Below are positions 2,828-64,000 of a stretch of DNA of 64,000 nucleotides, piece after piece. Made by a program: the position numbers and the translations under genes. This DNA is from an uncultured Alphaproteobacteria bacterium. GTDB taxonomy: Bacteria > Pseudomonadota > Alphaproteobacteria > Rs-D84. The notes beneath the pieces were generated by a model that did no database searches, was not told the DNA's origin, and was given only the letters and a program-made list of their open reading frames with translations. The stretch covers positions 33,040-97,039 of the forward strand of contig CALXXD010000004.1 of assembly GCA_944392595.1 (NCBI GenBank). Reading direction: 5' to 3'. Positions within the stretch are counted from its first letter, which is position 1; every line of letters begins with the position of its first letter.

Positions 2828-5140
2828 TTATTTCCATGCAGTTGGTATAGAACTGTAATCTTCTAACCCCGTCGCACCATAATACATATCACCAACATGA
2901 CCTCTGGTTGCGCCGGTAAAGAAGTCATATAAATATGTTCCATCGGGCATTCTGGCAGAAGGACCAGTTAACCCAGAACAATTATAAAATGTGTTTCTAA
3001 ACATATAACCTTTTGGACTGTTTGTTAAATTACCAAATAAACCAAGTGGTATTTCACCAGTTAAGCCCGAACAACGATAAAATGTGCCGGAAAACATCAT
3101 TTGTGCCGGTGCGCCGGATATATTTCCAAATAAGTTTTCTGGAATAGAACCGGTCAGCCCCGAACAACCAGAAAATGTGTATTTAAACATATCACTTGCG
3201 GGTGCGCCGGATATCCCCGCAAATAAGTTTTCTGGAATATTGCCCGAAAGGTTAGAACAACCATAAAATGTGCTGTCAAACATAGAACTTGCAGGTGCGC
3301 CGGATATCCCCGCAAATAAGTTTTCTGGAATATTGCCCGAAAGGTTAGAACAACCTTCAAATGTGCTTTGAAACATACAAGTTGCAGGTTTTCCGGATAT
3401 CCCCGCAAATAAGTTTTCTGGAATAGAACCAGTCAAACCCGAACAACCAGAAAATGTGCTGGAAAACATAGAAGTTGCAGGTGCGCCGGATATACCCGCA
3501 AATAAGGTTTCTGGAATGGTGCCTGTCAGCCCCCTACAACCATAAAATGTTCTGAAAAACATAGCACTTGCAGGTAGCCCGGATATATTTCCAAATAAGT
3601 TTTCTGGAATAGAACCAGTCAAACCCGAACAACCAGAAAATGTGCTGGAAAACATAGAAGTTGCAGGTGCGCCGGATATACCCGCAAATAAGTTTTCTGG
3701 AATAGAACCCGTAAGCCCCGAACAACCAGAAAATGTGTTGTAAAACATAGAACTTGCAGGTGTGCCGGATATATTTCCAAATAAGTTTTCTGGAATGGTG
3801 CCTGTCAGCCCCGAACAACCATTAAATGTGTCTTGAAACATATAATCTGCCGGTGCGCCGGATATCCCCGCAAATAAAGGTCCGCCGATACCAGTTAAGC
3901 CCGAACAACCTTCAAATGTGCTTCTAAACATAGAACTTGCAGGTGTGCCGGATATATTTCCAAATAAGTTTTCTGGAATGGTGCCTGTCAGCCCCGAACA
4001 ACCATTAAATGTGTCTTGAAACATATAACCTGCCGGTGTGCCGGATATACCCGCAAATAAGTTTTCTGGAATAGAACCAGTCAAACCCGAACAACCAGAA
4101 AATGTGCTGGAAAACATAGAAGTTGCAGGTGCGCCGGATATCCCCGCAAATAAAGGTCCGCCGATACCAGTTAAGCCCGAACAACCATAAAATGTTCTGT
4201 AAAACATAGAAGTTGCAGGTGCGCCGGATATACCCGCAAATAAGTTTTCTGGAATAGAACCCGTAAGCCCCGAACAACCAGAAAATGTGTTGTAAAACAT
4301 AGAACTTGCAGGTGTGCCGGATATATTTCCAAATAAGTTTTCTGGAATGGTGCCTGTCAGCCCCGAACAACCATTAAATGTGTCTTGAAACATATAATCT
4401 GCCGGTGCGCCGGATATCCCCGCAAATAAGTCTGCAGGGATTTCACCGGTTAAATTACTGTTGTTATAAAAAGTCCGACAAAATCTTGGCTGTGTGCCGT
4501 CGGCAAGCGTTCCGAATATCGCCCCAAGACTGCCCGATATACCGGCTGTATTTATATTACTGTTGAAACTTATTGCGGCTGTTGATGTGCTGGTATTATA
4601 TGCAGTTGCTTTGCCACCAATACCAATAGTATATTCACCTGCACTGTCATAAGTATGCCTGTATATCGTGCTTGTAGTATTTGTTTTGTTTATATTATCA
4701 ACAGTTCCGTCACCCCAATTTATAGAAAAACTGCCCGCTGCGCTTATATAAAACTCAAAACTACTTGTATTCCCCGCAGTTGTAACATAAAACATCGGCT
4801 TGTATGTTATTAACCTGTTTACCGCGTCACCTGCTGCAATTATATCTACGGCTTGTTTCGTCGCGTATACTGGGTCTGTCCCGTATGATGTCAAAGGCTC
4901 TTCATTTAATAAATTATTCGCCCTGTCCACCACCGTCAGTAAATATTCCATATTAGCAACCAGTTTTGCGTTTTCTGGATAATAAGGGACTTCTATCCCC
5001 CATCGCTGATTTACTAACTTATGAATGTATTCAACGTTCGCAACTTGCGCAGATTGCGCCGGATTTATGCTTGCACCACAAAATAGAAAAAATATACCCA
5101 GTATTAAGCTTTTTAATATTCTCATTTCTCTTTCCTGCAA
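2828..5140 (-). CDS. Secreted/surface leucine-rich repeat protein (BspA/DUF285-like LRR) with a PKD-like domain
   Basis: Signal peptide; INWGDG...HTY..AGEYTI PKD-like motif; about 17 tandem 30-31 aa repeats of MFxxTFxGCSGLTGxIPENLFxxISGxPAxx. Confidence 0.8.
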   Translation of the reverse strand: MQEREMRILKSLILGIFFLFCGASINPAQSAQVANVEYIHKLVNQRWGIEVPYYPENAKLVANMEYLLTVVDRANNLLNEEPLTSYGTDPVYATKQAVDIIAAGDAVNRLITYKPMFYVTTAGNTSSFEFYISAAGSFSINWGDGTVDNINKTNTTSTIYRHTYDSAGEYTIGIGGKATAYNTSTSTAAISFNSNINTAGISGSLGAIFGTLADGTQPRFCRTFYNNSNLTGEIPADLFAGISGAPADYMFQDTFNGCSGLTGTIPENLFGNISGTPASSMFYNTFSGCSGLTGSIPENLFAGISGAPATSMFYRTFYGCSGLTGIGGPLFAGISGAPATSMFSSTFSGCSGLTGSIPENLFAGISGTPAGYMFQDTFNGCSGLTGTIPENLFGNISGTPASSMFRSTFEGCSGLTGIGGPLFAGISGAPADYMFQDTFNGCSGLTGTIPENLFGNISGTPASSMFYNTFSGCSGLTGSIPENLFAGISGAPATSMFSSTFSGCSGLTGSIPENLFGNISGLPASAMFFRTFYGCRGLTGTIPETLFAGISGAPATSMFSSTFSGCSGLTGSIPENLFAGISGKPATCMFQSTFEGCSNLSGNIPENLFAGISGAPASSMFDSTFYGCSNLSGNIPENLFAGISGAPASDMFKYTFSGCSGLTGSIPENLFGNISGAPAQMMFSGTFYRCSGLTGEIPLGLFGNLTNSPKGYMFRNTFYNCSGLTGPSARMPDGTYLYDFFTGATRGHVGDMYYGATGLEDYSSIPTAWK
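2960..4485 (-). repeat. Intragenic tandem repeat array (93/90 bp units, about 17 copies)
   Basis: Near-identical DNA units, e.g. ataagttttctggaat...gccccgaacaacc, recur with a period of about 93 bp. Confidence 0.95.
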
Positions 5141-5886: not shown

Positions 5887-6108
5887 TTATTTTTTACGAT
5901 TTGAACGCAACTTGTCTGTATAAACCATGCCCATACCAATCAGCATCCAATATACAACAATACTACATTGCCCCCAGCTGTTATCAAACAAATAACCGCC
6001 GTCTATTAAATACGATGTTACATCCATTCCAACGCTCAAAAGCGCAATTAACACACCCCACAATATCCAAAATAAAACTTTCTTTTGCTTATTATTTAAT
6101 TTTTTCAT
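5887..6108 (-). CDS. Small two-TM membrane protein
   Basis: 73 aa with two hydrophobic segments; ATGA overlap with the rlmE stop; GGAGG SD. Confidence 0.7.
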   Translation of the reverse strand: MKKLNNKQKKVLFWILWGVLIALLSVGMDVTSYLIDGGYLFDNSWGQCSIVVYWMLIGMGMVYTDKLRSNRKK

Positions 6109-6773
6109 CCGTTTCCTCCTTTGAATCCCAACGCAACGATGAACATTTCAACACTGTCCTTGCGCGATGCAGGCGGTTTAATATGATGCACCGATTCGAA
6201 TTTTTCGCGAATTTGTTTTAATAATTCATTTGTTGTGCCACCTGTAAAAGACTTTGCGACAAACACACCCCCGGGCTTTAACGCACGACACGCAAAATCA
6301 AAAGCATATTCCAATAGCACCATTTGCCGAATATGATCGGTTTTTTTATGTCCAACTGTATTTGGCGCCATATCAGACAGCACAACATCCACAGTCCCAT
6401 GCGTTGCACCATCGGTCGGCAAATTTAATTTTTGCACCAACCAATCCAGCGCAGCATCCGACGTAAAATCACCCTGGTAAAATTCAACCCCCGGGATTGG
6501 TGTTATTTCCAACAAATCCATGGCGAACACACGCGACCGCGGAAACGCACGCATAACATATTGCGACCAAGACCCCGGCGCAGCCCCCAAATCCACCACA
6601 ACCTGGCCATTTTTCAGGAATTTATATTTTTCATTTATTTCAATCAACTTATATGCGGCACGTGCGCGATAACCATCACGATGTGCGCGCGCAACGTACG
6701 GGTCAGCCGCCTGGCGTTGAATCCATGCAGCCGATGATTTTTTCGATGCGATTTTCTTGTTCAGAATTTTCAT
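6105..6773 (-). CDS. rlmE: 23S rRNA Um2552 methyltransferase RlmE/FtsJ
   Basis: GYRARAAYKL, VVDLGAAPGSWSQ, VLSDMAPN and KPPASRKDSVE motifs. Confidence 0.96.
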   Translation of the reverse strand: MKILNKKIASKKSSAAWIQRQAADPYVARAHRDGYRARAAYKLIEINEKYKFLKNGQVVVDLGAAPGSWSQYVMRAFPRSRVFAMDLLEITPIPGVEFYQGDFTSDAALDWLVQKLNLPTDGATHGTVDVVLSDMAPNTVGHKKTDHIRQMVLLEYAFDFACRALKPGGVFVAKSFTGGTTNELLKQIREKFESVHHIKPPASRKDSVEMFIVALGFKGGNG

Positions 6774-6785
6774 CGCCCCGCCCCA

Positions 6786-7055
6786 TTAACGTTGATTGCG
6801 ATTGACACTGATTTGATTGCGCGTTTTTCTGTATAACTTAATAGCCGACGCCAAAGCCGCCCGCCCACGACGTTCTGCGTCAAACGCATCACGCGTTCTG
6901 AAAAACACTTTACGTGTTCCATGATACAGATACTCTATATCAACAACATACCCCAACAAGAACCGCTGTCCCCCTTCGATTAAAGGCTTTCTGAAACGCG
7001 GATACGGCACTTTAACAGAAACCGGCGTCCAATCAAATAATTTTAACCAATTCAT
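6786..7055 (-). CDS. Hypothetical protein (basic C-terminus ...RNQR)
   Basis: 89 aa ORF directly abutting the upstream gene, co-oriented in an operon. Confidence 0.65.
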   Translation of the reverse strand: MNWLKLFDWTPVSVKVPYPRFRKPLIEGGQRFLLGYVVDIEYLYHGTRKVFFRTRDAFDAERRGRAALASAIKLYRKTRNQISVNRNQR

Positions 7056-7601
7056 TTACTGTCCATTTTTATTCGGAACACCCCCAGGCTGCTGCTGACG
7101 CATTTTTTCCATCACAGCCTCCATCCCGCCCATACGTTGCACCATGGCCATTTGCTGGCGCATTTTTGCATGCTGTTTGATAATATGTTCGACATCACGC
7201 ACAGTACAACCAGCCGTTTCAGCAATCCGCGTCTTTGCATTTGCAAAAATCTTATCAGGTTCCGCACGTTCAGCGGGTGTCATCGCTTCCAATATTTTTA
7301 TTTGTGCATCAACACTGCCGTCTTTGATTTTTTCTTTCATCGCAGCCACAGCACCCGACATCCCAGGCACCATTTTTAACAATCCGCTGAAATTGCTCAT
7401 CTTTTTAATTTGTTTCAATTGCATCAGCATATCATTCAAATCGAATTGCCCGTTCATCATACGCTGGGCAGATTCTTTCATACCACTGGGCATTTTTTCT
7501 TCCAGTTTTTTTAATTCTTTTTCATCGATTTGTGCATTCGCATTATCAGCGGCAACCGTATCAACAACTTTTTTATCTTTTTTCTTGCCAAATCCAAACA
7601 T
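7056..7601 (-). CDS. Stand-alone SRP54/Ffh M-domain (signal-peptide-binding) protein with no NG GTPase
   Basis: GQFDLNDMLMQLKQIKKM..LLKMVPGM...AMTPAERAEP...RIA...G..V.DV..IIKQ...Met-rich tail aligns with the Ffh M domain; it has its own SD (AAGGAG) and ATG. Confidence 0.85.
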   Translation of the reverse strand: MFGFGKKKDKKVVDTVAADNANAQIDEKELKKLEEKMPSGMKESAQRMMNGQFDLNDMLMQLKQIKKMSNFSGLLKMVPGMSGAVAAMKEKIKDGSVDAQIKILEAMTPAERAEPDKIFANAKTRIAETAGCTVRDVEHIIKQHAKMRQQMAMVQRMGGMEAVMEKMRQQQPGGVPNKNGQ

Positions 7602-7633
7602 AATATTTCTCCTTGGGTTTTATAAGATATACT

Positions 7634-10492
7634 TTATTTTTTCCGTGGCGCATTGTCCAGATACTTTTTCAAATATTTTCCAGTCAGTGATTCAGGATTT
7701 TCCGCCACCTGCTCTGGCGTACCGGTGGCAATAACGCGCCCGCCATTTGCACCACCACCGGGACCCAAATCAATAATCCAATCAGCGGTTTTAATTACTT
7801 CCAAATTATGCTCGATAACAATCACAGTATTGCCCGCATCGACCAATTCATGCAACACAGACAACAACAACTTAATATCTGCGAAATGCAGCCCCGTGGT
7901 TGGTTCATCCAAAATATAGATTGTTTGTCCCGTACTGCGTGCCGCCAATTCTTTGGATAATTTAATACGTTGGGCTTCGCCGCCCGATAAATCCAGCGAA
8001 CTTTGTCCCAATTTGATATAATCCAACCCGACACGCTTTAATAATTCCAACTTGCGTGCAATTTGCGGAACATTGCTGAAAAATCTGTATGCTTCTTCGA
8101 CCGTCATATTTAACACATCGGCAATCGATTTACCTTTGTATTTAACGGCCAAAGTTTCATCATTGTACCGCGCGCCATGGCATTTGTCACATTCGACATA
8201 TACATCAGCCAAGAAATTCATTTCGATTTTTATCTGGCCGTCACCTTGGCACGCTTCACATCGCCCACCTTTGACATTGAACGAAAAACGCCCCGGTCCA
8301 TATCCGCGCGCCTTGGCTTCGGGCAAACCTGCAAAAAAATCGCGAATATTTGAAAATACCCCTGTATAAGTGGCCGGATTGCTGCGTGGTGTGCGTCCAA
8401 TTGGCGATTGGTCTATATCAACAACTTTATCGACATATTCCATACCACGAATAATATCGTGCGCCCCCGTTTCCAATTTAGAATTATACAACGCGCGCAT
8501 CAGTGCGGGATACAACGTATCCAACAATAACGTCGATTTACCCGACCCCGACACACCCGTCAGCGCGACAAATTTTCCCAACGGGAAATCCACATTTATA
8601 TTTTTCAGATTATTTTCGCGCGCACCATTAATTGAAATCACGTGCCCATTTCCATCGCGACGCTTTTTGGGAACTTCTATTTTCCGCTTGCCAGATAAAT
8701 ATTGCCCCGTCAAAGAATCTTTATTTTTAATAACCGCATCCGGCGTACCTGCTGCGACAACACGCCCGCCATTTATACCCGCGCCCGGTCCAATATCCAC
8801 CAAGAAATCAGCCGCCCGCATGGCATCTTCGTCATGTTCGACCACAACGACAGTGTTGTCTTTGTCGCGCAGCATTTTCAGCGTATCCAACAATTTATCA
8901 TTATCGCTTTGATGCAACCCGATGGACGGTTCATCCAAAACATATAACACACCGGACAGACCACTGCCGATTTGCGACGCCAAACGAATACGCTGCGCTT
9001 CGCCCCCAGACAAAGTCCCCGACATACGTGACAAAGTCAAATATCCCAATCCAACATTTTGTAAAAATTGCAGACGACTGGTAATTTCACGCAAAATGAC
9101 ACGCGCAATATCATTTTCTTTTTGAGTTAAATGATTTGGCAAATCAGAAAACCATTTCAGCGATTGATCCACCGCCATATCGCACGCATCCATAATATCC
9201 AACCCATAAATTTTCACACACAACGCCTGGATATTTAATCGTTTGCCGTGACACATCGGGCATGGCGTCTCGGATTGGTACTTTGCCAATTCGCTGCGCA
9301 CAGCCTCGGAATCCGATTCGCGCCAACGGCGTTCGATATTTGGGATAACGCCTTCGTAAGGCTTTTCATAAACAAATCCATTCCAGTTTATTTTAATGGG
9401 TTCATCACCACTGCCGTACAGTATAATATCTTTCTGTTGCTGGGTTAATGTATGCCAAGGCTTTGACAGCGGGATTTTATATTTTTTATGTAACGCATCC
9501 AACAAATGGTCAAATTGGCTTAACATCCCCCCGCGCGACCAAGGCGCAATCGCCCCATCCAGAATAGATTTCGATGGGTCTGGTATCACCAAATCAGGCG
9601 ACATATTTAATTGCACACCCAACCCATCGCACGCCGGACACGCCCCCATTGGCGCATTAAAAGAAAATAATCGCGGCTCAATTTTTGGAACAGTAAAACC
9701 ACTGACGGGACACGCATAATTTTGCGAATATAAAACATCTTCGTTCGTATCCAAACGTCGCACCAACACAGACCCCGGCACCAAACGTAACGAACCTTCA
9801 AAAGACGCATACATACGCGACCGAAATTCATCAACATCCACATCCGCCGCACCCGCGGCCGGCATCTGCAACCTATCCACAATTACAAATATTGTGTGCT
9901 TTTTATTTTTATCCAACGGCGGTACAGCCGATAAATCGTGTAATTCACCATCGATTATCGCACGCTGATAACCCTGCTTTACCAAAAAAGCGATTTCCTT
10001 TTTATATTCGCCTTTGCGTTCGCGCACCAGTGGCGCCATGATAAAGATTTTTACCCCGGCCGGTATTTTCATGGTCCAATCGACCATCTCAGGTATAGTT
10101 TGCGATTTAATCGGCAACCCAGTTACCGGCGAATGCGGCACACCAATACGCGCCCACAACAAACGCAGATAATCATAAATTTCGGTAACCGTCCCAACGG
10201 TCGAACGCGGATTTTTCGATGTAGTTTTTTGTTCAATGGAAATCGCGGGTGACAGACCCTCGATTAAATCAACATCAGGCTTTTTCTGCATATCCAAAAA
10301 CTGACGCGCGTACGCAGACAGCGATTCGACATATCTGCGCTGGCCTTCGGCATAAATGGTATTAAACGCCAGCGACGATTTGCCCGAACCGGACACGCCT
10401 GTAAAGACCACCAATTTATTTTTTGGTATGTCCAAATCAATATCTTTAAGATTATTTTCGCGGGCCCCGCGAATTTTTATAAATCCACCCAT
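7634..10492 (-). CDS. uvrA: Excinuclease ABC subunit A
   Basis: Two ABC ATPase cassettes ([17 protein letters not shown]), zinc fingers and [16 protein letters not shown]. Confidence 0.99.
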
Positions 10493-12768: not shown

Positions 12769-13239
12769 TTAATTCAAAAACACAACTGCACCATTCAAAT
12801 ACAACGCAAACACCAACCATAACAAATACGGCCACACCATGTAATACGCAGGCCGACTGATTGGCCGAAATGCGGTCATCATCCATACTGTCACGCCAAT
12901 CAACGCAATCAGCACAACCAACGCCGCCGCCATTAAATTCACACCAAAGAATAAATAAGACCACAACGCATTTAACACAACGTGCGCCCCAAACGCCCAA
13001 TAAGACATCGATTTGCTGTACCGCGTTCTATCAACAATAATTAAATATAACGCGATACCCAAAATCAGATACAAAATCGGCCATACAACCGCAAACACCC
13101 ACCCCGCCGGCATCACCGCGGGTTTTACCAACGCGTTATACCACACGTCAGACGCCCCATCCGGGGAAAACATCACACCTATAATCCCCGGCAAGAAAGA
13201 GATTACAATGGCCAAAACAAACAACCAAAATTTTTTCAT
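12769..13239 (-). CDS. tspO: TspO/MBR family tryptophan-rich sensory protein
   Basis: WYNALVKP..PAGWVFAVVWPILY, LNALWSYLFFG and PYLLWLVFALYLN motifs. Confidence 0.95.
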   Translation of the reverse strand: MKKFWLFVLAIVISFLPGIIGVMFSPDGASDVWYNALVKPAVMPAGWVFAVVWPILYLILGIALYLIIVDRTRYSKSMSYWAFGAHVVLNALWSYLFFGVNLMAAALVVLIALIGVTVWMMTAFRPISRPAYYMVWPYLLWLVFALYLNGAVVFLN

Positions 13240-26477: not shown

Positions 26478-27248
26478 CTACATCTGAGATTTAAGCACAC
26501 TACCACAACATTTTTTATACTTCTTGCCACTACCACATGGACATTTTTCATTAACGCCTATCTTTCTTGGTTTGTCTGAGTCCGGCCACTCCCTATCAAA
26601 CAAATGATTCCAATCACTAATTTTTTGTCTAAACACACCCTGCTTTATTCTTTCAGAATTCCAATATTCCTGCTCTGTTTGCGGCCAATCTTTAAATTCT
26701 GCATAAACCATATCTGTACCCGAAACGCGTCTATGTTTAGGTGGCTCAATAGCAATTCCAACTATTTTATCAATATGCACATTTTCTTCCGTGCATTTAG
26801 CTTTCGCAAAATGAGCATAACACTCCAACATATTTCTTCTAGCATCTATATAATCCTGAAAATCACTAAATCTTATACTATCAACTTGCAAGAAAATATA
26901 TAACAACCCCTGAGTTACACGTGACATAAAAGCCGTCATACGTATTTGATCCTGTTCGCACCTATCTATAGCACCTAACATAGCATTAGAAAATATACGC
27001 CTAGAAAGTCGGTCCTCCATCGCCATATACCGCAATAATACATCTTTATCACTCGGTTGTGATTGATAAACTATCTCCGTAATACCGTTCAAAACACAAT
27101 ACGAAATATCTCGTAATAACTCATCCCAAAAATAACTTTGTCTATCGGCAGCGATTTTAGACAAATAATCTCGACCTTGATTCAACGCCCCCCAATCTTC
27201 TTCTAAAAACAAACAACCATCGCAATTTTTTTCATCTTCGGATAACAA
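26478..27248 (-). pseudogene. C-terminal fragment of a SEC-C motif protein
   Basis: Ends KIGVNEKCPCGSGKKYKKCC. The 5' end has only a TTG inside the 62 bp repeat and no SD, suggesting truncation. Confidence 0.65.
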
Positions 27249-32542: not shown

Positions 32543-35500
32543 TCAGAACCGATACGATCCGGTAACCTTGATGTTGTGTAATTGTATCGCATCGTTATAT
32601 TGATAACGATAATCAATTCCAAACTGTAATCCCATCGCAGACAAGAATTCAACACCACCACCAATATTTGCCCACAACGGATCAATATCAATATCATATT
32701 TGGTATATGTATGTGCCGGCGCAAATTTATATTTTACAAAATCTGGCGCCCCCAATACATCGTATTCAACACCGATTGACGCGTATGGACGGATCTGGAA
32801 CCACGCCGACGGGTAAATACGCTTTTGTGCAATCAAAGAATACCCAGGTGTCAAAATCAGATACCCATCAGATTGCATATCCATATAATCTTGGCCTGCG
32901 GCATGTTCTGTGATATCAAAACCAAAGTTATATCCAACACGCGCATACGCATTACCAACGATATACTGATTCAGCCAATCATGCATCAAACCCCATTCAC
33001 TGATTAAACTGAACGCGGTACCACTGCCATCGATTGGGTTCATAAATGTTTGGTTACGCGCTATATCGAAAATATGTACATCCAAAAACGCATTTCCATA
33101 CAGACGCGTTTTTTCACCCAATATTTTCATCATATAACCACCCACACCAACATTCCAATCATCAACGGTCATATCGGCAAACCCACGCATTGGTGTATCC
33201 GGCAAATATCCCAAATCCACAACATCTGAATTATCAGTCGAAGAATTTGAAACATGCGCGGTCAATCCCAAAATAGTTGTTTCGGAATCTTGCCAATCAA
33301 ACCCGGCGGCGATGCTGAATCTGTCACCGTATGCGCGGCCATCTTGGACGTTTTGCGAAACGAATCCATAATCCACATCAACCCAAGCCTTGCTTAAACT
33401 GCGGTTACGATTCCAAATAAATTCATCAAACATACGATCTTCGAAATCACGGAAATTGGTATGTTCGTTCAGCGCAACAGCACCCGCAATTTGTTCCAAT
33501 TCACGCGCCTGGAACAAACGACTGAACCGCGCCAAAGGATCGGCATCGCCGGTCAAATAATAATTTTCCATGCGATCATACAACGCATCCGCCATTTCTG
33601 CGAAATTCGTACCTTTGAACATAGCAGGCAAAATTTCAATCGGCGCACTTTCACTGAAACCGACATTGATAATTTGCCCTGCGATTAAATCGTCCAGCGC
33701 GCCCGCAGAAACATATTCGCCATCAGTATGCGACGGCACACCTGCAACGATGGGCTGCAATTTGAATACTTCAATCGGCCCGCCATAATTCGGATTAAAC
33801 ACTACATACAAACTGTCGATTTTTCCATCACCATCGCTGTCGCGTTCAGTAATATAAATCGGCAAACCATTATCCTCGCTGCCTGATTCCAGCGAACCGT
33901 CACCTTTTATCGAACTTGCATAATCGATGCATATCGAACCGTCCGCATTACAGAACTTCACATCCAAATTGCGCAGGTGTTCAAAACCATCGGAAATGTC
34001 AATTCCGCCATCTGCATGCACCAACCAAATGGCATCGCCCATATCAACGTTTTCGAACAAAGTAACACCAACTGTTGGCTGGGCATCATTCGTCCCCAGT
34101 GACACACCGGTAATATTTGAAATCATCTTGCCATCTGTAATTTCAATCAGCGCACCTGCATTTTGTTCAGCATTGGTGATTTCACCGAATTTATTAACAC
34201 CATCATCGGTTATAGAAGACCAATAATCCTTGCCATCGGCCGTTGTGGCATCATTGAACACAACAGCCCATAAATCACTGCTGTTATTAAACGTATAATC
34301 GCCGTTGATTGTTGCCTTTTGTACGCCCCAGAAATCAACACCACCGGACACATTACCATTAACGGTTATATCCAACCAATCGTCACCCAAACGTGCAAAC
34401 CGTACATCACCCAACGCATCAATATTACCATTAACAACAACGGAATTCGTATTCACCAACAATTCACCAGAATCTTGATTAATTCCAGAAACGGTGAAAG
34501 CATTGCTTGAAATGGTATAATTATCGGAATTAATGCCAACCTGACCCGCGATTAAATCACCCAAAACATTTTGATTCAAAACTGTACCGGTTGTAAATTT
34601 GCCCGCAGTCGTCAATCCAGCCCCCGCCAAAGTTATCGTGCCATTCGCACCAAAACCGGTCACGTCAAACGAAGAAATTGTCACAACACCCGCACCGGAA
34701 TCCAGTGTCAAATCACCTGCATTTTTGGCAATTGAACCCAAAGTAATTCCATCGGCATTAATCGTTAATTTCGCGCCATCTCCAACGGTCAATGATTCGT
34801 TAATCTCTGCGGTGCCGTCCAAATTCCACAAACCGTCCGTCCCCGCCATCGCGGTATAATCCCCAGAAACCGTCAATCCCACGGCATTCAATTCAAATTT
34901 TTCAGTATCCAAATTCAATGCCCACGGCGTCCCAGTTCCCGACGTATCGGTCACGGTTCCCTGGATAACATCGCCCGTAACGGTCACATTACCTGTAACG
35001 TCAATTGAACTTGCATCAACAATCTGAACCGCGCCGGTTGTACTTGACTGACCACTTGTAACGGACAAAGCGCCACCAATATCAATGTCGGCGGCGGCAA
35101 TATTTGCACGACCACCACTGACCGAAACATCACCACCAACAATCACAGATTCCGCGGCATTATCGCCATTTCCGCCAATTGCCACCACACCGGCCGCAAC
35201 ATCAACAGAACCACCAACATCAACAGTCCCGGCCGCGGCAATATCAACCTCGACTTCGGCACTGGATGCGACATTGTTTGAAATTCCGCCCGTAATATTA
35301 ACAGACCCATTTTTGCTTGCGATACTGATGCTGTCGCCACCATTTGCAACATTGCCCTTAACCGTAACATCGCCCGCATTGGCCACAACGCCAACCGTGC
35401 CGCCGGTTACATTTCTGATACCACCAACGGTAACAACACCACCAGAAATACTCAACGCGCCAGCATTTTCAATCGCACCACCAACGGTAACACCACCGTC

Positions 35501-37789
35501 ATTATTCGCGGTTAATGTCAAAGTTTTTCCCGACACCAAATCCAACACACCGGAAATATCAATTGATGTATCCGATACCAATTCCAATTCGGTTGCGGCC
35601 TCGTCGGCAATTAACCCGACACGGTCATTAACGGCATTACCATCAAAATACAGTCCGCCATCAATATCAATCGCGCCACCCGCAACAACTGAACCAGTAT
35701 GCATAACAAACTTTGAACCATTATTGATGCTTAACCCACCACCAATTTCATTTGTACCTGCAACCAACTCCAATGTTCCGCCATTATCAACGGTCACAGA
35801 ATTTGTAACAGATAAATGATTGTCGAATTCGTCACCCAACACCAATGTATTAGTCGCGCCCGACACATTTACCGAATCGCCAACGGACATGGTCCCCGCC
35901 GCCAAAGTGACATTATGCGCCCCCGCCGCCGTAACATTGATATTGCCACCGATATTTAACGCAGCCTGATTTTCACCATCGGTCGCAACGTAATTTGATT
36001 TTAATGTAAAATCTTCTACACCACTGGCCGCGATAACAATGTCGCCACCATTGTCGGACGCCGCACCAACCGTAACATCACCATCAATGGATATTGAACC
36101 CGCGGCTGTAACATTACTCGTTGCCTTGGCAATATTCAGTGTCGCGCCCGACTGAATATCAATCACGCCATTTACAGTCACGCCGCCCGCCAAATTATTC
36201 AGATTAATTGCCCCGGCATCTGCATCAATCGAACCAACGGTTAAACCGTTATTATTGTCATCACCCGTGGCATTAATATTTATGTTTCCACCACTGCTGA
36301 CCAATGCGCCATTAACCGCGATTGTGTTACCATCAATATTAATTTCACCAGACGCATTAGTAACCGATTGCCCAATCGTAACCGTGCCATCCGCCACAGA
36401 CGCCGCAACATTCAAAGTACCACCAGACACGTTTGAAACGCTGCCATCAATCTGAACTGTGTCACCACCGTACAAAGCCATAACATTGCCGGCACTTGCG
36501 CCATTATGCACCACACTGCCCTTAACGGTCAAAGAACCAGCCGACGCAATTTCAGTACTTGCCGCATCCGCGCTCGAACGCACATCACCATTCACAGTTA
36601 CACTGTTCGTGCCATCGACAATCGTATCACTGATTTCAAAATTGCCAATTTCCAGGCTGTTTCCATTATTTGTCACATTACCAACGGCGATTGTCGGCGC
36701 ATGCACCCGCATATCACCGCCATTATTTGTTACATCAATCCAAGCCGTCCCTTGGGCAGTGCTGACAGTCCCCTGCTTTACAATCAGTGTAAATTCATTC
36801 AATTTGTTTGTAAATACGCCCAGCCATCTGTCCACACCGGCACCCAAATCCAAACTCCCGGTTGTCAGCGAAAACGTATTATCCGCCCCCATGGCACTTA
36901 AATCAAAACCGTTCGCCAAATTCGTTTTGCCGGCAATATTGATATTCAAATTTCCCTTGTTCACAAACGACGCGTTATCTGAATCGCCACCGGACACAGT
37001 CAAACTTGCCCCAGTAATATTCATAGTCCCATCGTTCGAATCGTTTTTGATTGTAGCGGTAACTGCTATCTCGCCCGCGGCTTTAACAGTCATACCATTG
37101 CTGCTGGAATTATAAATACTGCCCCCAACGGTTATCCCGCCGGATTCTGCCGCAACGGATTCTGCCGCAACACTAACATTGCCCGCAGTTCCGCGATTTT
37201 CTATATCACCATCACTTACAATTGTCCCAGCGGCTATATTGGCATTTCCCGCGCCAGTATTATGAAAGCCATCGATATCCAAATCACCCGCAATATCAAT
37301 ATCTGTATTGCCCGTGGCATTTGTAATCGCACCCGATGTCATACTGCCCGCCGCAATATTCAAATCCGCAGCCGCATTAATAACACCCTTCGCAGTCAAA
37401 GTATTGACACCAGTAATCGTCAAATTACCATTCGCATTAACAGAGCCCAGATTAATTGCAATCGTATTGGTATTTTCCGGATCAACACCCAGCGCCAACG
37501 AATATCCATTCTCAATTTTTAATTCATTCGTAACCGTAAATGACACACCCGACGCGTCACCATTATAAAATAACGAGAAATCTGGCCCCGCACCATCAGC
37601 CGTATAAGTATAAATATTATTATCCAGATCCGGATTTTCCGGCACGCTGTATCCAATCAGCACATTCGTCGCACTGACAGAATCCGAAAACACAGCCCCC
37701 GAACCCGTCAATGGATTATCAAAACTAAAAGCAGCCTGGGCACCCATTGGCGCCAAGCACAACATAAAGAATATTGTTTTTTTCATCAT
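32543..37789 (-). CDS. Large autotransporter-like outer-membrane adhesin (1748 aa)
   Basis: Signal peptide; long G/N/T/V-rich beta-helix-like passenger; C-terminal ~290 aa amphipathic beta-barrel ending GSYRF. Confidence 0.82.
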   Translation of the reverse strand: MMKKTIFFMLCLAPMGAQAAFSFDNPLTGSGAVFSDSVSATNVLIGYSVPENPDLDNNIYTYTADGAGPDFSLFYNGDASGVSFTVTNELKIENGYSLALGVDPENTNTIAINLGSVNANGNLTITGVNTLTAKGVINAAADLNIAAGSMTSGAITNATGNTDIDIAGDLDIDGFHNTGAGNANIAAGTIVSDGDIENRGTAGNVSVAAESVAAESGGITVGGSIYNSSSNGMTVKAAGEIAVTATIKNDSNDGTMNITGASLTVSGGDSDNASFVNKGNLNINIAGKTNLANGFDLSAMGADNTFSLTTGSLDLGAGVDRWLGVFTNKLNEFTLIVKQGTVSTAQGTAWIDVTNNGGDMRVHAPTIAVGNVTNNGNSLEIGNFEISDTIVDGTNSVTVNGDVRSSADAASTEIASAGSLTVKGSVVHNGASAGNVMALYGGDTVQIDGSVSNVSGGTLNVAASVADGTVTIGQSVTNASGEINIDGNTIAVNGALVSSGGNININATGDDNNNGLTVGSIDADAGAINLNNLAGGVTVNGVIDIQSGATLNIAKATSNVTAAGSISIDGDVTVGAASDNGGDIVIAASGVEDFTLKSNYVATDGENQAALNIGGNINVTAAGAHNVTLAAGTMSVGDSVNVSGATNTLVLGDEFDNHLSVTNSVTVDNGGTLELVAGTNEIGGGLSINNGSKFVMHTGSVVAGGAIDIDGGLYFDGNAVNDRVGLIADEAATELELVSDTSIDISGVLDLVSGKTLTLTANNDGGVTVGGAIENAGALSISGGVVTVGGIRNVTGGTVGVVANAGDVTVKGNVANGGDSISIASKNGSVNITGGISNNVASSAEVEVDIAAAGTVDVGGSVDVAAGVVAIGGNGDNAAESVIVGGDVSVSGGRANIAAADIDIGGALSVTSGQSSTTGAVQIVDASSIDVTGNVTVTGDVIQGTVTDTSGTGTPWALNLDTEKFELNAVGLTVSGDYTAMAGTDGLWNLDGTAEINESLTVGDGAKLTINADGITLGSIAKNAGDLTLDSGAGVVTISSFDVTGFGANGTITLAGAGLTTAGKFTTGTVLNQNVLGDLIAGQVGINSDNYTISSNAFTVSGINQDSGELLVNTNSVVVNGNIDALGDVRFARLGDDWLDITVNGNVSGGVDFWGVQKATINGDYTFNNSSDLWAVVFNDATTADGKDYWSSITDDGVNKFGEITNAEQNAGALIEITDGKMISNITGVSLGTNDAQPTVGVTLFENVDMGDAIWLVHADGGIDISDGFEHLRNLDVKFCNADGSICIDYASSIKGDGSLESGSEDNGLPIYITERDSDGDGKIDSLYVVFNPNYGGPIEVFKLQPIVAGVPSHTDGEYVSAGALDDLIAGQIINVGFSESAPIEILPAMFKGTNFAEMADALYDRMENYYLTGDADPLARFSRLFQARELEQIAGAVALNEHTNFRDFEDRMFDEFIWNRNRSLSKAWVDVDYGFVSQNVQDGRAYGDRFSIAAGFDWQDSETTILGLTAHVSNSSTDNSDVVDLGYLPDTPMRGFADMTVDDWNVGVGGYMMKILGEKTRLYGNAFLDVHIFDIARNQTFMNPIDGSGTAFSLISEWGLMHDWLNQYIVGNAYARVGYNFGFDITEHAAGQDYMDMQSDGYLILTPGYSLIAQKRIYPSAWFQIRPYASIGVEYDVLGAPDFVKYKFAPAHTYTKYDIDIDPLWANIGGGVEFLSAMGLQFGIDYRYQYNDAIQLHNIKVTGSYRF

Positions 37790-47396: not shown

Positions 47397-50300
47397 TTAT
47401 CCCTCGCCGTTTTCTTTGACCTCGGGCGAATTCATCATCGCAAAGTGCGCGATATATTTTTTCAATTCGCTGCGATAATGGTTGTTTTCCTTGGCTTCGG
47501 CCACCAACCGGTCAAAGTGCGGATTGGCCGCACGTGCCGCCGCAAAACGACTTTCTGTTTTCAAGAAATCTTCCAACGGCGTCGTTTCATCGACATTCGA
47601 ATCCATCGTCAGCGGACTGTGCCCATCCAAAATCAACGACGGGTCAAACCGATACAGCGGCCATGCGCCCGTGCTGACCTGTTGCGATTGGTGTTCTGGG
47701 CCATTTTGCAATGGGAAACCATGCGCGATACACGGCGCATACGCCAATATTATTGACGCTCCTGGGAATGCGGCCGCCTCGCGGAATGCGCGTATTGCCT
47801 GGGCTTGATTGGCACCCAATGCGATTTGCGCGACATACGCGCCCGACATCATGGCAATCATACCCAAATCTTTTTTGGCGTGCTCTTTCCCGCCAATGGC
47901 AAATTTCATACTTGCGCCGAACGGCGTAGCCTTGGATTGTTGGCCACCAGTGTTGGAATAACCTTCGGTATCCAAAACCAAGATATTAACATTTTCGCCA
48001 CTGTGCAAAACATGGTCCAAACCGCCGTATCCAATATCGTACGCCCAACCGTCGCCACCGATAATCCACACATATTTATCGACGATTTCACCGATTAAAC
48101 TGCGCGCCATGGCCGCCCGTGGCGAATCGATTTTTTCCAATTTCGCGCGTAATTCAGTTTCGATTTCACGCTGTTTGTCTGGGTCGCGTTCCGCAAAGAT
48201 TTCTTCGACGTTTGGAATATTTAACTCAAACAATAAACCTTTTAACGTATCGCGTTTTTGATTCAGCGCGATTCGCATACCCAAACCGTATTCAGCATTA
48301 TCTTCGAATAATGAATTCGACCACGCAGGCCCACGCCCATTCGCATCCGCCGTCCAAGGCGTAGTCGGCAAATTCCCACCATATATCGACGAACATCCCG
48401 TCGCATTTGCCACTATCATACGATCGCCAAACAAATGGGACATCATTTTAATATATGGTGTTTCGCCACACCCCGCGCAAGCACCCGGGAATTCGAAATA
48501 ATGCGGCAACAATTCAACATGCTTTGGAATATTCAGATTTAATTTTTCCCGCGGCATATCTGGGATTTTTTGCGCCGCATCGAATCGTTTTTGCTGGTCA
48601 CCGGAATCACGCAGCGCCATCATAGACAATGCCTGGACCGGACAATTTTTCACGCAAACATTGCACCCCGTACAATCCGCTGGCGAAATATTTAACGTAT
48701 AATACATGTTTTCGCCCAATTCAGGCGTTTTCATCGGCACAACAATTACGCCATCTGCGCGCGCACGTTCGGCCTCGTCCGCGGTCATAGCCTTGATACG
48801 AATCGCCGCATGCGGACACAGCATCGAACATTTACCGCACTGGATACATTTTTCCAAATCAACGGTTGCAACCCGGTCGGAAATCGCGCGCTTTTCGTAT
48901 TTTGCGGTACCAACGGGATATTGCCCTGCCCCGAATTCACCATCAACACGGAAACGCGACACAGGAATTTCATCCCCACGTTGCGCCGCCATTTCGCCCA
49001 ACGTTCCAGCAATTTCGGCCGGTGCAGCACTTGTCATCGCCGGCACAAAATCAGGCGCAAAATTGGATACAGACGATGGCAATTTGTACTCGTGCAGATA
49101 ATCCGCCGCCTTATCAACCGCGGCCCAGTTCGCCTGGACAACATCCATACCCTTTTTCTTGTATGTTTTTTCAATTGCAACCTTGGCACTGGTTGCGGCA
49201 ACAGCCGGGTCAATAACATGCGTTAAATTAAAGAAGTTCAACATAATAAACGTGTTGATACGATTTCCCAACCCCAGTTCGGCCGCGGCTGAATTCGCAT
49301 CCAGGAAAAACACACGCGCACGAATTCGCATCAAATGTTCCTGGGTTTCACGTGGCAAATTCGCAAACGCGACATCGGGCGCCATGGATGTGTTAATCAT
49401 CACAGTCCCGCCCGCGCGCAGCCCGCGGAATATATCAAAACGTTGTGCAATCATAAAATTCGAAACACTGATAAAATCAGCAACTTCGATTAAATATTGA
49501 CTTTGAATTGGTTTATCCGAAAAACGTATATGCGACGCGGTCAGTCCGCCCGACTTTTTCGAATCATACACAGCATACGATTGCGGATATAAATCAGAAT
49601 TTTCCCCAACGATTTTAACGATGTTTTTAACCGCGCCAACCGTACCATCCGAACCAATACCGTACAGTATTGCCGTCTTGAAATTGTCATCCTGGACGGA
49701 AAACGCAGGATCTGTTTTCAACGACAAACCGGTCAAATCATCTTCGATACCGACTGTAAAATTATGATGCAAAGTTTCGCGCATCAGATTTTCAAACACA
49801 GCCTTGACATCGCGCGGCTTGAATTCTTTTGATCCCAAACCATAACGCCCACCGAATACAGCGGCCTTGTCCCCAACAACCGTTTTAACATCTTGATACA
49901 GCGGTTCGCCCAAAGAACCCGGTTCTTTACATCTGTCCAAAACGGCAATACGTTTAACAGACTTTGGCAAAGCCGCCAAAAACGCATCACGTGGGAATGG
50001 ACGGAACAAATGCACTTTTAACAATCCCAATCCGGCCGGCAAATGCGCCATAGTTTCTTCGATTGTTTCGCATGCACTGCCCATTGCGACGATAACATTT
50101 TCAGCATTCGGATCACCAACATAATCGACCAAGTTATATTTGCGCCCCGTCAGTTTTGCAAACTTATCCATACATTCTTGAACAATTTCTGGTGTTTTCG
50201 CATACAGCGGGTTTGCGGCCTCGCGTCCTTGGAAAAACACATCGGGATTTTGTGCAGTTCCACGAATCGTCGGATGATCAGGCGTCATCCCGCGCGCACG

Positions 50301-50903
50301 ATTTGCCAAAATTAAATCATCAGGCAACATTTCGCGCAACACATCGTCTTCTATACGCGTCAGTCGTGATTCTTCGTGACTGGTGCGGAACCCATCAAAG
50401 AAATGTAAAAACGGCACACGCGCGCGCAGCGTTGCGGCATGCGCAATTGCCGCCAAATCATGCGCCTGTTGCACATTATGACTGGACAACAAGGCAAAAC
50501 CAGTTTGCCGCACAGACATAACATCGCTGTGATCACCAAATATAGACAACGCATGCGTTGCCAAAGCGCGCGCCGCAACATGCATCACGAACGGCGTTTG
50601 TTCGCCTGCGATTTTGTACATATTCGGAATCATTAACAACAATCCTTGGGACGCCGTAAAAGTCGTCGCCAAAGATCCCATTTGCAACGCACCGTGCATC
50701 GCACCTGCGGCCCCGCCCTCGGATTGCATTTCAATTATTTGCGGAATCGCGCCCCAGATATTTTTTTTATGCTGGAACGACCATTCGTCCGCCAATTCGC
50801 CCATAGTACTGCTGGGGGTGATTGGATAAATTGCCGCGAAATCAACGCATCTGTACGCGACATCAGCCGCCGCCCAGTTTCCATCAACAATTAAATTTGC
50901 CAT
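47397..50903 (-). CDS. nifJ: Pyruvate:ferredoxin (flavodoxin) oxidoreductase
   Basis: IYPITPSS, GSDGTVGA, two 4Fe-4S motifs, GACAGCGE and GGDGWAYDIG. Confidence 0.98.
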   Translation of the reverse strand: MANLIVDGNWAAADVAYRCVDFAAIYPITPSSTMGELADEWSFQHKKNIWGAIPQIIEMQSEGGAAGAMHGALQMGSLATTFTASQGLLLMIPNMYKIAGEQTPFVMHVAARALATHALSIFGDHSDVMSVRQTGFALLSSHNVQQAHDLAAIAHAATLRARVPFLHFFDGFRTSHEESRLTRIEDDVLREMLPDDLILANRARGMTPDHPTIRGTAQNPDVFFQGREAANPLYAKTPEIVQECMDKFAKLTGRKYNLVDYVGDPNAENVIVAMGSACETIEETMAHLPAGLGLLKVHLFRPFPRDAFLAALPKSVKRIAVLDRCKEPGSLGEPLYQDVKTVVGDKAAVFGGRYGLGSKEFKPRDVKAVFENLMRETLHHNFTVGIEDDLTGLSLKTDPAFSVQDDNFKTAILYGIGSDGTVGAVKNIVKIVGENSDLYPQSYAVYDSKKSGGLTASHIRFSDKPIQSQYLIEVADFISVSNFMIAQRFDIFRGLRAGGTVMINTSMAPDVAFANLPRETQEHLMRIRARVFFLDANSAAAELGLGNRINTFIMLNFFNLTHVIDPAVAATSAKVAIEKTYKKKGMDVVQANWAAVDKAADYLHEYKLPSSVSNFAPDFVPAMTSAAPAEIAGTLGEMAAQRGDEIPVSRFRVDGEFGAGQYPVGTAKYEKRAISDRVATVDLEKCIQCGKCSMLCPHAAIRIKAMTADEAERARADGVIVVPMKTPELGENMYYTLNISPADCTGCNVCVKNCPVQALSMMALRDSGDQQKRFDAAQKIPDMPREKLNLNIPKHVELLPHYFEFPGACAGCGETPYIKMMSHLFGDRMIVANATGCSSIYGGNLPTTPWTADANGRGPAWSNSLFEDNAEYGLGMRIALNQKRDTLKGLLFELNIPNVEEIFAERDPDKQREIETELRAKLEKIDSPRAAMARSLIGEIVDKYVWIIGGDGWAYDIGYGGLDHVLHSGENVNILVLDTEGYSNTGGQQSKATPFGASMKFAIGGKEHAKKDLGMIAMMSGAYVAQIALGANQAQAIRAFREAAAFPGASIILAYAPCIAHGFPLQNGPEHQSQQVSTGAWPLYRFDPSLILDGHSPLTMDSNVDETTPLEDFLKTESRFAAARAANPHFDRLVAEAKENNHYRSELKKYIAHFAMMNSPEVKENGEG

Positions 50904-63800: not shown

Positions 63801-64000
63801 GATATAACGCTGGACACCTCAAACGGTGGCAATTACATAATGCAAATTTTGGACGCTTCGGACAAGATTTTGACATCAGTCGAATACTTTGTCGCAGGCG
63901 CAAAAAACGACACTTTGCAATCTGACACAAACGCAGATTTGGAAATAAAATTAAACGGCGAACAATTCGCGCCCGGCGATAAAATTGAAATCAGCATAAC
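60804..64000 (+). CDS. Bacterial alpha-2-macroglobulin family protein, 3' end runs off window
   Basis: ATG 60804 after AAGGGG; N-terminal TM helix; in-frame DKRLILLTDLGII, VLGRNG, YVFSDRGIYRPGE and VQEFTPD motifs. Confidence 0.92.
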   Translation, partial: MQKKNKSKKTVKRTPIWKRAILWAVSVFVVIAIATATIIMLTQSGDKTRLNANISSPNVATFTDDNTMFFATQNSVPEPNNDRNLTTPDDIIISYNLDSGPYAPAFKMGITNEDLPNKIKITPFIRGEWYILNDSAIGFAPKTSWPAGETFTVKLDSDLFNDDVKIDTNRVKFETPNIAATVDNFNLYTAPTDKKSVVAVAVISFNYQIDTKNFTDKISLRTDGDDTDFIVKFDRFHRTAFIISAPIKITDTPQNVRLKINRIPAASGDSKTEKLTANVTIESADNIFKIQSIQTNIVNLDDGNSQQLILLDTTTAAQSNIDWSKYLTVYLLPEYRDDDERNNEQIHNWKNDEITDEVISQSQKLDIKSVDFATPNGVHQYAFSYAVSDDNNRDIYIELKPGAVSANGFTMKNGMNTVLCVPYLPKSVEIAGSGALLSLSGDQKLGLVARGGADMAYVNLYKVKSSEINHLISQTYNVFADAMAFKSWAFGAYDMSVVFQKQIPFASTSRTRANYASIDLGDYLTRTYGDNTGIFIIQTGTSENAAEYNDKRLILLTDLGIIRKTNLDGSSVVFVSNLGDGTPASDTEISVLGRNGNAVWAGRTDGDGRANIPSLPWSEYRNSREPVAIVARRGNDVSFIPYNAYDQRVEYSKFDVDGTYAVATNPLNAYVFSDRGIYRPGEEIIIGGIIKNKSFKSLSGIPVRLQIFDPRGRLAFEKTFSLTSDGMFDETYNIQNGAPLGTWTAYVYSLTSNNNLNDMLGMMNFEVQEFTPDTMKINAQIAGASNNGGWISPDNLSASVSLRNMFGTPATGRRISAYATLTPTEYSFDKFQGYKFTPNFISGTGLSENTARHNQTYSVEIQDVTTDDKGVAKFDINFNQTIPSGTYTLTLNVRGFESNSGRNVQTNITAHASNAKYLLGWRANGDLGYINRNASRMVNIVAVDHTATPTAANGLTMRVIQRENQTTLVKDYSNTYKYQTITRNKIISQRQIDIPSNGLDITLDTSNGGNYIMQILDASDKILTSVEYFVAGAKNDTLQSDTNADLEIKLNGEQFAPGDKIEISI

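Follow-up and report, generated by a model that had tools for sequence, protein, structure and literature searches.

A stand-alone Ffh M domain at the ffh locus of gut Alphaproteobacteria in which no SRP GTPase or SRP RNA is found

Can the M domain of Ffh, the protein of the bacterial signal recognition particle (SRP), be kept as a gene of its own when the N and G domains (NG) that form the GTPase are gone, and what would such a protein do? The question is raised by a gene in a stretch of 64,000 nucleotides, hereafter the window, from an uncultured alphaproteobacterium of the order Rs-D84 (assembly GCA_944392595.1, contig CALXXD010000004.1, positions 33,040 to 97,039 of the forward strand). 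This stand-alone Ffh M-domain gene (“M-only”) lies at 7056..7601 on the minus strand; it starts with ATG and encodes 181 amino acids, the stop codon being inside these coordinates. A Shine-Dalgarno sequence, AAGGAG, is read 7 nt before the ATG (7609..7614, minus strand). An earlier note, made from the letters of the window, had described an intact 181-residue gene with its own Shine-Dalgarno sequence that codes for nothing but the Ffh M domain, and both the open reading frame (ORF) and the family models confirm this description. Indeed, the Pfam model SRP_SPB (PF02978) matches the protein with an E-value of 8.9e-23 and 80.9 bits against a cut-off of 27, covering residues 52-151 over the whole profile (1-91 of 91), which makes the protein a member of PF02978. 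The NCBIfam ffh model (TIGR00959) aligns only at model positions 314-427 of 428 and gives 82.4 bits against a cut-off of 473.2. By the features that define TIGR00959 the M-only protein is not an Ffh, as it falls short in NG, in the RNA motifs, in the RNA and in the receptor. The proteins of this type are publicly annotated as ‘hypothetical protein’, and the reading frame is intact in all 88 M-only sequences examined.

Is the rest of the SRP encoded elsewhere? The earlier note had suggested searching the genome and its relatives for an Ffh NG domain, for ftsY and for SRP RNA, and none of the three is found, neither in the source genome (976,991 bp in 15 contigs, 98.67% complete, 0.38% contaminated) nor across the clade to which it belongs. 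The M-only gene is the sole match to the ffh model in the source genome. The SRP GTPase domain PF00448 reaches there at best 12.8 bits against a cut-off of 22.7, so that neither an Ffh NG nor FtsY is seen, and the best match to the ftsY model scores 11.9 bits. The same searches for ffh, PF00448, ftsY and SRP RNA were positive in 12 to 14 of 14 control genomes. In a sample of 151 genomes of the family, all 109 genomes of the source genus, the source included, have an ffh match at the level of the M domain only, and so have those of six further M-only genera (g12 2/2, g17 1/1, g19 5/5, g20 1/1, g24 2/2 and g26 1/1). Ten other genera of the sample have a full-length ffh together with a second NG match, which is FtsY. 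We then took the count of PF00448 matches at E<=1e-10 to the whole order, 328 genomes: the domain is absent from the 257 genomes of the source genus and from the 12 of the other M-only genera (0/269), and present in 55 of the 58 genomes of the remaining genera. A single genome of genus g27, 78% complete, has no PF00448 and no ffh match at all. While these absence counts rest mostly on metagenome-assembled genomes, two single-contig M-only genomes are among them and give the same picture, with no SRP GTPase and no SRP RNA found.

SRP RNA was searched for with two covariance models. RF00169, the Rfam model of bacterial SRP RNA, has no match in the source genome and matches none of 25 genomes of the source genus, versus 13 of 16 genomes of other families. 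Taken alone, RF00169 is nonetheless insufficient as proof of RNA loss, since it under-detects in genomes of the same family that have a full-length ffh: three of five match, all of them below the gathering score. For this reason, we built a lineage-specific model, R1, from nine SRP RNAs of relatives, and it recovers two full-ffh genomes missed by Rfam (E about 1e-12). With R1, nothing is found at E<=1 in the source genome or in the two single-contig M-only genomes. Family-wide, the model is positive in 26 of 29 genomes of full-ffh genera, three of these 26 being training sequences, and in none of the 120 genomes of M-only genera. As a side observation, the SRP RNAs of the full-SRP genera in this family are short (about 80-93 nt) and are found by R1 at E-values from 1e-6 to 1e-15; RF00169 either places them below the gathering threshold or misses them, and thus under-detects in the order Rs-D84.

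Altogether, these searches identify a clade of gut Alphaproteobacteria, formed by Candidatus Enterousia and sister genera within the order Rs-D84, in which the SRP cycle has been dismantled. The earlier note had proposed that the M-only protein replaces or supplements SRP. Because no NG, ftsY or SRP RNA is found in the genome or in the clade, the first half of this alternative is retained and the second is dropped: the protein would replace SRP rather than supplement it. Enterousia has been described as a lineage of the order Rs-D84 with reduced genomes that lack the TCA (tricarboxylic acid) cycle and a respiratory chain (PMC12306168); that paper makes no mention of SRP, ffh or ftsY.

How the gene came about can be read from its surroundings. 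In the window, uvrA (7634..10492, minus strand, identified by its Pfam UvrA domains) lies upstream of the M-only gene at a distance of 32 nt. Downstream come a variable ORF of 89 amino acids (6786..7055, minus strand), whose ATG abuts the M-only stop and which has no Pfam or NCBIfam match, and then the methyltransferase gene rlmE/ftsJ (6105..6773, minus strand, Pfam FtsJ 1.1e-59). Using uvrA and rlmE as synteny anchors, we found uvrA upstream at 80 of 80 loci of the source genus and rlmE downstream at 77 of them, the other three loci ending early. The same order is found with the M-only gene at seven loci from four other M-only genera, and in five further genera of this family a full-length ffh stands between uvrA and rlmE, at seven of seven loci. 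Since a full-length ffh occupies this very locus in related genera, the NG part was deleted in place. No relic of NG is detected at E<=1 in the 80 loci or in the source locus. The starts of the full-length ffh, ATGTTTGA (MFDNL..), and of the M-only gene, ATGTTTGG (MFGFG..), have a similar ribosome-binding context, which weakly suggests that the deletion was internal and left the first start codon in use.

The deletion is both unique and old. In a tree of the UvrA and RlmE proteins, built from 21 rows of which four are less than half filled, the 14 rows from M-only loci make up one side of a branch with a support of 100 in the Shimodaira-Hasegawa-like approximate likelihood ratio test (SH-aLRT), which amounts to one change, and the M-domain tree concurs with this flanking-gene tree (support 98). 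Comparison of the loci and trees thus shows that NG was deleted once, in place and long ago, in a clade that is nested within one family. The earlier note had taken a full-length ffh at this locus in relatives as a possible sign of recent truncation that would count against its reading. Such genes are literally there, at the seven loci just mentioned, but this does not overturn the reading because the truncation is old: the M-only form spans at least seven genera and 269 species-level genomes and has been strongly conserved since.

One further protein may extend the lineage. P0126 is a stand-alone M-domain protein of 138 amino acids, 48% identical to the M-only protein, which starts with MGLFGKKK and carries ..AMT and a further degraded RNA motif, ..RIAADSK. 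This protein, a singleton, comes from a contig of 2.6 kb; the M-domain tree puts it, on a long branch, on the same side as the M-only sequences (support 94.6), and its best matches in the 151-genome family sample are full-length Ffh proteins at 55-56% identity. A metagenome scan found no relatives of P0126. Its place on the tree suggests that the M-only lineage may go back further, or extend more widely, than the genera sampled here. Other short M-domain matches in a representative library at 50% identity were rejected as stand-alone forms, most of them beginning within Ffh near the G-M linker, like fragments; 20 were judged besides P0121 and P0126, nine of them beginning at the M of ..GMGD.., and P0126 alone among these short matches looks like a further M-only form.

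We also looked at the gene borders themselves. The 89-residue ORF was considered as a possible partner and rejected, as it has no family match and is poorly conserved: tblastn detects it at no more than 22 of the 80 loci, with identities of 32-50%. Between the M-only gene and rlmE, the length of the spacer differs widely from locus to locus. On the other side, usually about 30-150 nt separate uvrA from the M-only gene, as against about 1.7 kb in g12 (L127, G042) and 0.7 kb in g26 (L128, G057); the open frames upstream of the M-only start in L127 and L128 have no similarity to NG. A scan for promoters and terminators around the M-only gene gave matches that are not above shuffled expectation.

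Is the gene still under selection, and what has changed in it? Selection was measured as the pooled ratio of non-synonymous to synonymous differences per site (pN/pS) over 80 sequences, the source and 79 loci (L029 left out). The ratio is 0.17 for the whole gene and differs markedly between regions: codons 1-8 have 0.019 and the core (residues 37-165) has 0.086, while the tail reaches 0.46 and the linker 0.77. pS is about 0.70, which means that synonymous sites are saturated. The selection test that the earlier note had put forward therefore gives strong purifying selection, in the core as in the N-terminal motif. The core, residues 37-170 (7092..7493, minus strand), is supported by the predicted helices and by structural matches, and consists of Met-rich helices, the fingerloop, the former RNA-binding helix-turn-helix and a C-terminal Met-rich helix. 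Its identity is 0.81 within the M-only group, 0.65 within the full-length Ffh proteins of the family and 0.46 between the two groups. These values indicate that change came as a burst on the stem branch and that the sequence was frozen thereafter.

The remodelling is clearest in the former SRP-RNA-binding segment, residues 100-133 (7203..7304, minus strand), in which the contact residues are replaced. When aligned with the M domain of E. coli Ffh (PDB 1dul/5aka), the one crystallised together with 4.5S RNA, the motifs ..SMT and SRKRRIAAGSG of the latter stand against ..AMT and NAKTRIAETAG in the M-only protein. We extended the comparison to 30 M-only sequences and 15 full-length Ffh M domains of relatives. 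Arg122 and Gly129 are invariant in the 15 relatives; the former is Ala in 30/30 M-only sequences and the latter is H, K, Q, S or T in 30/30. Moreover, the M-only sequences introduce Glu at 128 and Glu or Asp at 105, and the SM motif has become AM (S106 to A) in most of them, Ser being kept in some. The net charge of residues 100-135 is +0.8 in M-only sequences versus +4.4 to +5.0 in full-length relatives, so that the RNA face has been neutralised, with a loss of about 4 positive charges. The altered RNA-contact motifs that the earlier note had pointed out thus hold, against E. coli as well as against the relatives. Its claim that the Met-rich signal-peptide groove is kept holds as well: Met makes up 12.7% of residues 37-170, no less than in the M domains of relatives (10.6-12.2%), versus 3.0% genome-wide. 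The fingerloop region, residues 81-99 (7305..7361, minus strand), is frozen in the M-only clade. Between 84 and 96, 12 positions (all except 86) are invariant in the 30 M-only sequences, whereas 84-93, 95 and 96 vary among the 15 full-length relatives.

The other strongly conserved part of the protein is its start. The N-terminal motif MFGFGKKK (codons 1-8; 7578..7601, minus strand), a new element that is both aromatic and basic, is exact in 77 of the 88 M-only sequences and has close variants in the other 11, such as MFGLGKKK, MFNFGKKT, MAWFGRSK and MSWFSKKK; the N-terminus noted earlier is therefore near-invariant across the group. It occurs a single time in the source genome. It is followed by a variable linker, residues 9-36 in the source protein (7494..7577, minus strand), predicted with low confidence (residues 8-24 below 50 in the predicted local distance difference test, pLDDT). 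Across M-only proteins the linker is 7-32 residues long (median 24), rich in E, K, A, D and N, with a mean net charge of -2.1. The N-terminus of FtsY is a membrane-targeting element, and the FtsY N-termini of relatives, read at 12 of 13 loci, resemble the motif (MGIFSKISSLF.., MFGLGKKL.., MFGKFGQKL..).

The structure, whose prediction the earlier note had also put forward, is predicted to be that of an M domain. An AlphaFold2 model computed from an alignment of 45 rows has a mean pLDDT of 76.6 and a predicted template modelling score (pTM) of 0.66; residues 8-24 are disordered (pLDDT <50), helices run across 27-170, and pLDDT exceeds 90 at 101-150. The Foldseek matches at E<=0.001 are chains of the Ffh M domain, 5aka_5 (E 3.5e-4, template modelling score 0.68 on the target) and 5nco_i, and the lower ranks are filled by SRP54/Ffh chains such as 1hq1_A (E 4.4e-2, template modelling score 0.87). 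The model and its matches thus confirm that the M-domain fold has been retained. Foldseek also matches, with a probability of 0.94-0.98, the mL105 chains of Tetrahymena and Toxoplasma mitoribosomes (6z1p_AT, 9g6k_Le and 9i05_AI). In a profile search with the M-only family, 6z1p_AT is reached at E 3.8e-6 and bacterial Ffh at about 1e-22.

How does the M-only protein compare with known systems? With bacterial Ffh it shares homology in the M domain, the predicted fold, the richness in Met and the chromosomal locus; it differs in having no N and G domains, in its replaced RNA-contact residues, and in that no SRP RNA or FtsY is found beside it. cpSRP54 of higher plants has lost the SRP RNA and has changed RNA motifs in its M domain, but keeps its NG GTPase and cpFtsY and has gained cpSRP43. 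The M-only clade resembles cpSRP54 in the loss of the RNA and in the change of the RNA-binding motifs, and differs from it in that both the GTPase and the receptor are gone. Life without the SRP cycle is on record in Streptococcus mutans (PMC8546722) and, through SRP deletion with suppressors, in E. coli (PMC7844537), and is described as being helped by YidC paralogues or slower translation (PMC8546722, PMC7844537). While those cases, as described there, are laboratory deletions of the whole Ffh, the M-only clade as a whole has lost SRP in nature and keeps its M domain under selection.

The nearest likeness is found in mitochondria. MAP67/mL105 is described as an M-domain-only relative of Ffh for which an internal deletion of N and G was proposed (Pyrih et al. 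2021, PMC8321541). In the mitoribosome it is located at the tunnel exit, its C-terminal helix reaching into the tunnel (Tobiasson and Amunts 2020, PMC7326499), and the Polytomella mitoribosome study of 2022 describes it as touching an insertase-like density (PMC9576764). Both mL105 and the M-only protein have an M domain without N and G, no SRP RNA, no GTPase receptor and an alphaproteobacterial ancestry. They differ in that mL105, according to these papers, is nuclear-encoded, is proposed to stem from a duplicate of mtFfh and belongs to the structure of the mitoribosome, whereas the M-only gene sits in a bacterial genome and arose in place from the single ffh. Unlike mL105, the M-only protein carries a conserved aromatic and basic motif at its N-terminus, and ribosome binding, a structural feature of mL105, is putative for it. 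The M-only protein is far closer to bacterial Ffh (about 1e-22) than to mL105 (E 3.8e-6), and its gene lies at the ancestral ffh locus; its origin is thus independent of the MAP67 clade, the two not sharing a common descent as M-only forms. Among the papers listed by our searches of one literature library, which covered Enterousia and Rs-D84 as well, we found no published report of a natural bacterial M-only case.

The remaining export machinery bears on what the protein could do. SecY, SecA, YidC, SecB and trigger factor are all present in the source genome. A crude hydropathy scan of 845 non-overlapping ORFs gave 99 with at least two transmembrane-like segments and 51 with at least four, and clients for co-translational insertion therefore remain. 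Compensation by a ribosome-binding YidC tail in the manner of Oxa1/YidC2 was considered and rejected, the tails being just as short in the 11 M-only genomes compared as in the 11 full-SRP ones. SecY shows no change in length, the alignments covering 438 amino acids and being collinear in the M-only and full-SRP groups. As to expression, two studies with RNA-labelled gut libraries have contigs that match parts of the M-only gene with 1-5 mismatches; these contigs speak for presence only, not for level, ends or strand.

What, then, would an M domain do on its own? We propose that the M-only gene is a functional remnant of ffh and that its product is a factor that captures signal anchors and needs neither GTP nor RNA, a bacterial counterpart of mL105/MAP67, and we give this proposal about even chances. 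An internal deletion took out the N and G domains in place, and FtsY and SRP RNA were lost. The remaining protein of 150-180 amino acids combines a short aromatic and polybasic N-terminal motif, a disordered linker and the M domain. As inner-membrane proteins emerge from the ribosome, the M domain would capture their hydrophobic signal anchors, at the exit or close to it, by means of its Met-rich groove, fingerloop and C-terminal helix, and the FGFGKKK motif on its flexible tether would anchor the loaded complex to the translocon or to the anionic membrane. Cargo would finally be handed to SecYEG or YidC without GTP hydrolysis, receptor or RNA. In this scheme, the binding of signal peptides, the association with ribosomes and the action of the N-terminal motif at the membrane or translocon are putative activities, and a complex prediction for SecY with the M-only protein, with a score of 0.00, is evidence neither way.

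Several points weigh against this proposal. In bacterial SRP, the protein touches uL23 and uL29 mainly through its N domain, and the RNA has a part in organising the M domain; since both the N domain and the RNA are gone, ribosome binding cannot be assumed. Targeting without nucleotide hydrolysis has no obvious step of release or proofreading. The N-terminal motif comprises eight residues, two of them Gly, and has no amphipathic helix like that of FtsY targeting sequences, so that its likeness to FtsY N-termini may be due to chance or convergence. Moreover, the evidence for transcription consists of contigs from RNA-labelled libraries only, in which DNA carry-over is possible, and that for the absences comes mostly from metagenome-assembled genomes, though two are single-contig. 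Finally, every contact in this proposal, whether with signal peptides, ribosomes, lipids, SecY or YidC, is putative.

The main rival explanation places the protein permanently at the exit site, as a near-stoichiometric component of the large subunit like mL105; the N-terminal motif and the remodelled surfaces would then bind rRNA or ribosomal proteins, and contact with the membrane would be made through the nascent chain, SecA or YidC. mL105 itself provides the precedent, being an M-domain-only Ffh relative at the tunnel exit whose C-terminal helix is described as touching bL23m (PMC7326499), and the Foldseek match to its chains (0.94-0.98) and the profile match to 6z1p_AT (E 3.8e-6) point in the same direction. 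The freezing of the C-terminal Met-rich helix and of the fingerloop in the clade is also what a fixed interface would produce. However, ribosome association of the M-only protein is a conjecture by analogy with mL105, whose mitochondrial binding sites are reported to be formed by mitochondrion-specific extensions (PMC9576764), and a long, variable and acidic linker is easier to reconcile with tethering to a distant surface than with a rigid contact on the ribosome; on balance we consider this explanation unlikely. The protein could also be a cytosolic holdase only, its M domain shielding hydrophobic segments during or after translation and passing them to SecA/SecB or YidC, with no targeting and with another purpose for the N-terminal motif. 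The groove has been kept for it, SecA, SecB, trigger factor and YidC are all at hand, and the loss of SRP is reported to be survivable in S. mutans (PMC8546722) and in E. coli with translation-slowing suppressors (PMC7844537). We nonetheless find it quite unlikely, as it leaves unexplained both a near-invariant motif on a flexible tether (pN/pS 0.019) and the freezing of the fingerloop.

Two further explanations depart more widely from membrane-protein targeting. The M domain might have been recruited outside membrane-protein biogenesis, for instance to bind another amphipathic peptide or a regulatory partner. The burst on the stem branch (identity of 0.46 between groups versus 0.65-0.81 within) and the clade-specific residues fixed in the fingerloop and on the former RNA face would fit such a change of role, but the features that serve signal binding, namely Met richness, hydrophobic helices and overall fold, have been kept, and no conserved new neighbour gene points to another pathway, which makes repurposing very unlikely in our view. 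Lastly, the gene could be a decaying pseudogene, or NG, FtsY and SRP RNA could reside on DNA that was left unassembled or unbinned, most of the genomes being metagenome-assembled and RF00169 being weak in this family (three of five full-ffh genomes, all below the gathering score). This explanation is disfavoured and hardly credible given that the SRP GTPase is found in 0/269 genomes versus 55/58 in other genera of the order, that the same absences recur in two single-contig M-only genomes, and that the lineage RNA model is positive in 0/120 versus 26/29. The core pN/pS of 0.086 over 80 species-level sequences with saturated synonymous sites, and a frame intact in 88/88 sequences, likewise speak against decay. 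A tethered capture factor that hands signal anchors to the translocon or insertase is therefore the explanation that we prefer.

The window holds several other genes of note. At 26481-27248 (minus strand) it encodes a 256-residue protein whose sole Pfam match is a C-terminal SEC-C motif, the zinc-binding tail of SecA type; some eukaryotic MAP67 proteins are described as carrying SecA C-terminal domains (PMC8321541). A protein of 770 residues (2831-5140, minus strand) is made of many tandem repeats of about 25 residues (..GCSGLTG.IPENLF.GISG.PA..) behind an N-terminal signal-like segment, and has no Pfam match at E<=1e-5; the same is true, as to Pfam, of an ORF of 1748 residues at 32546-37789 (minus strand). 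A pyruvate:ferredoxin oxidoreductase (47400-50903, minus strand), a TspO/MBR family protein (12772-13239, minus strand) and a bacterial alpha-2-macroglobulin (60804-63998, plus strand, cut off by the end of the window) are consistent with an anaerobic, host-associated lifestyle.

The finding is of consequence in several respects. At least 269 species-level genomes are without either SRP GTPase, and SRP RNA is found in none of the 120 searched for it, yet SecYEG, SecA and YidC are kept, together with about a hundred polytopic membrane proteins and the strongly conserved M-only protein. These genomes offer a natural system in which to ask how little suffices for targeting membrane proteins, and what is gained from the GTPase cycle and from the RNA. 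They also provide a bacterial, sequence-tractable counterpart of mL105/MAP67, one that displays a deletion route merely proposed for mitochondria: NG was removed in place, the RNA face neutralised, and the fingerloop and C-terminal helix fixed. For genome-quality and phylogenomic marker sets that presume ffh and ftsY, such a clade is of direct relevance. It is conceivable, although we would put it somewhat below an even chance, that a single nucleotide-free protein of about 170 amino acids, a tethered or ribosome-resident catcher of signal anchors, has naturally replaced the GTPase cycle of SRP, receptor and RNA. If so, living Alphaproteobacteria would have replayed independently the reduction that led to mL105, and would have arrived at a minimal device for co-translational targeting; a free-standing lineage that is common in animal and human guts would then have replaced the supposedly universal SRP cycle.

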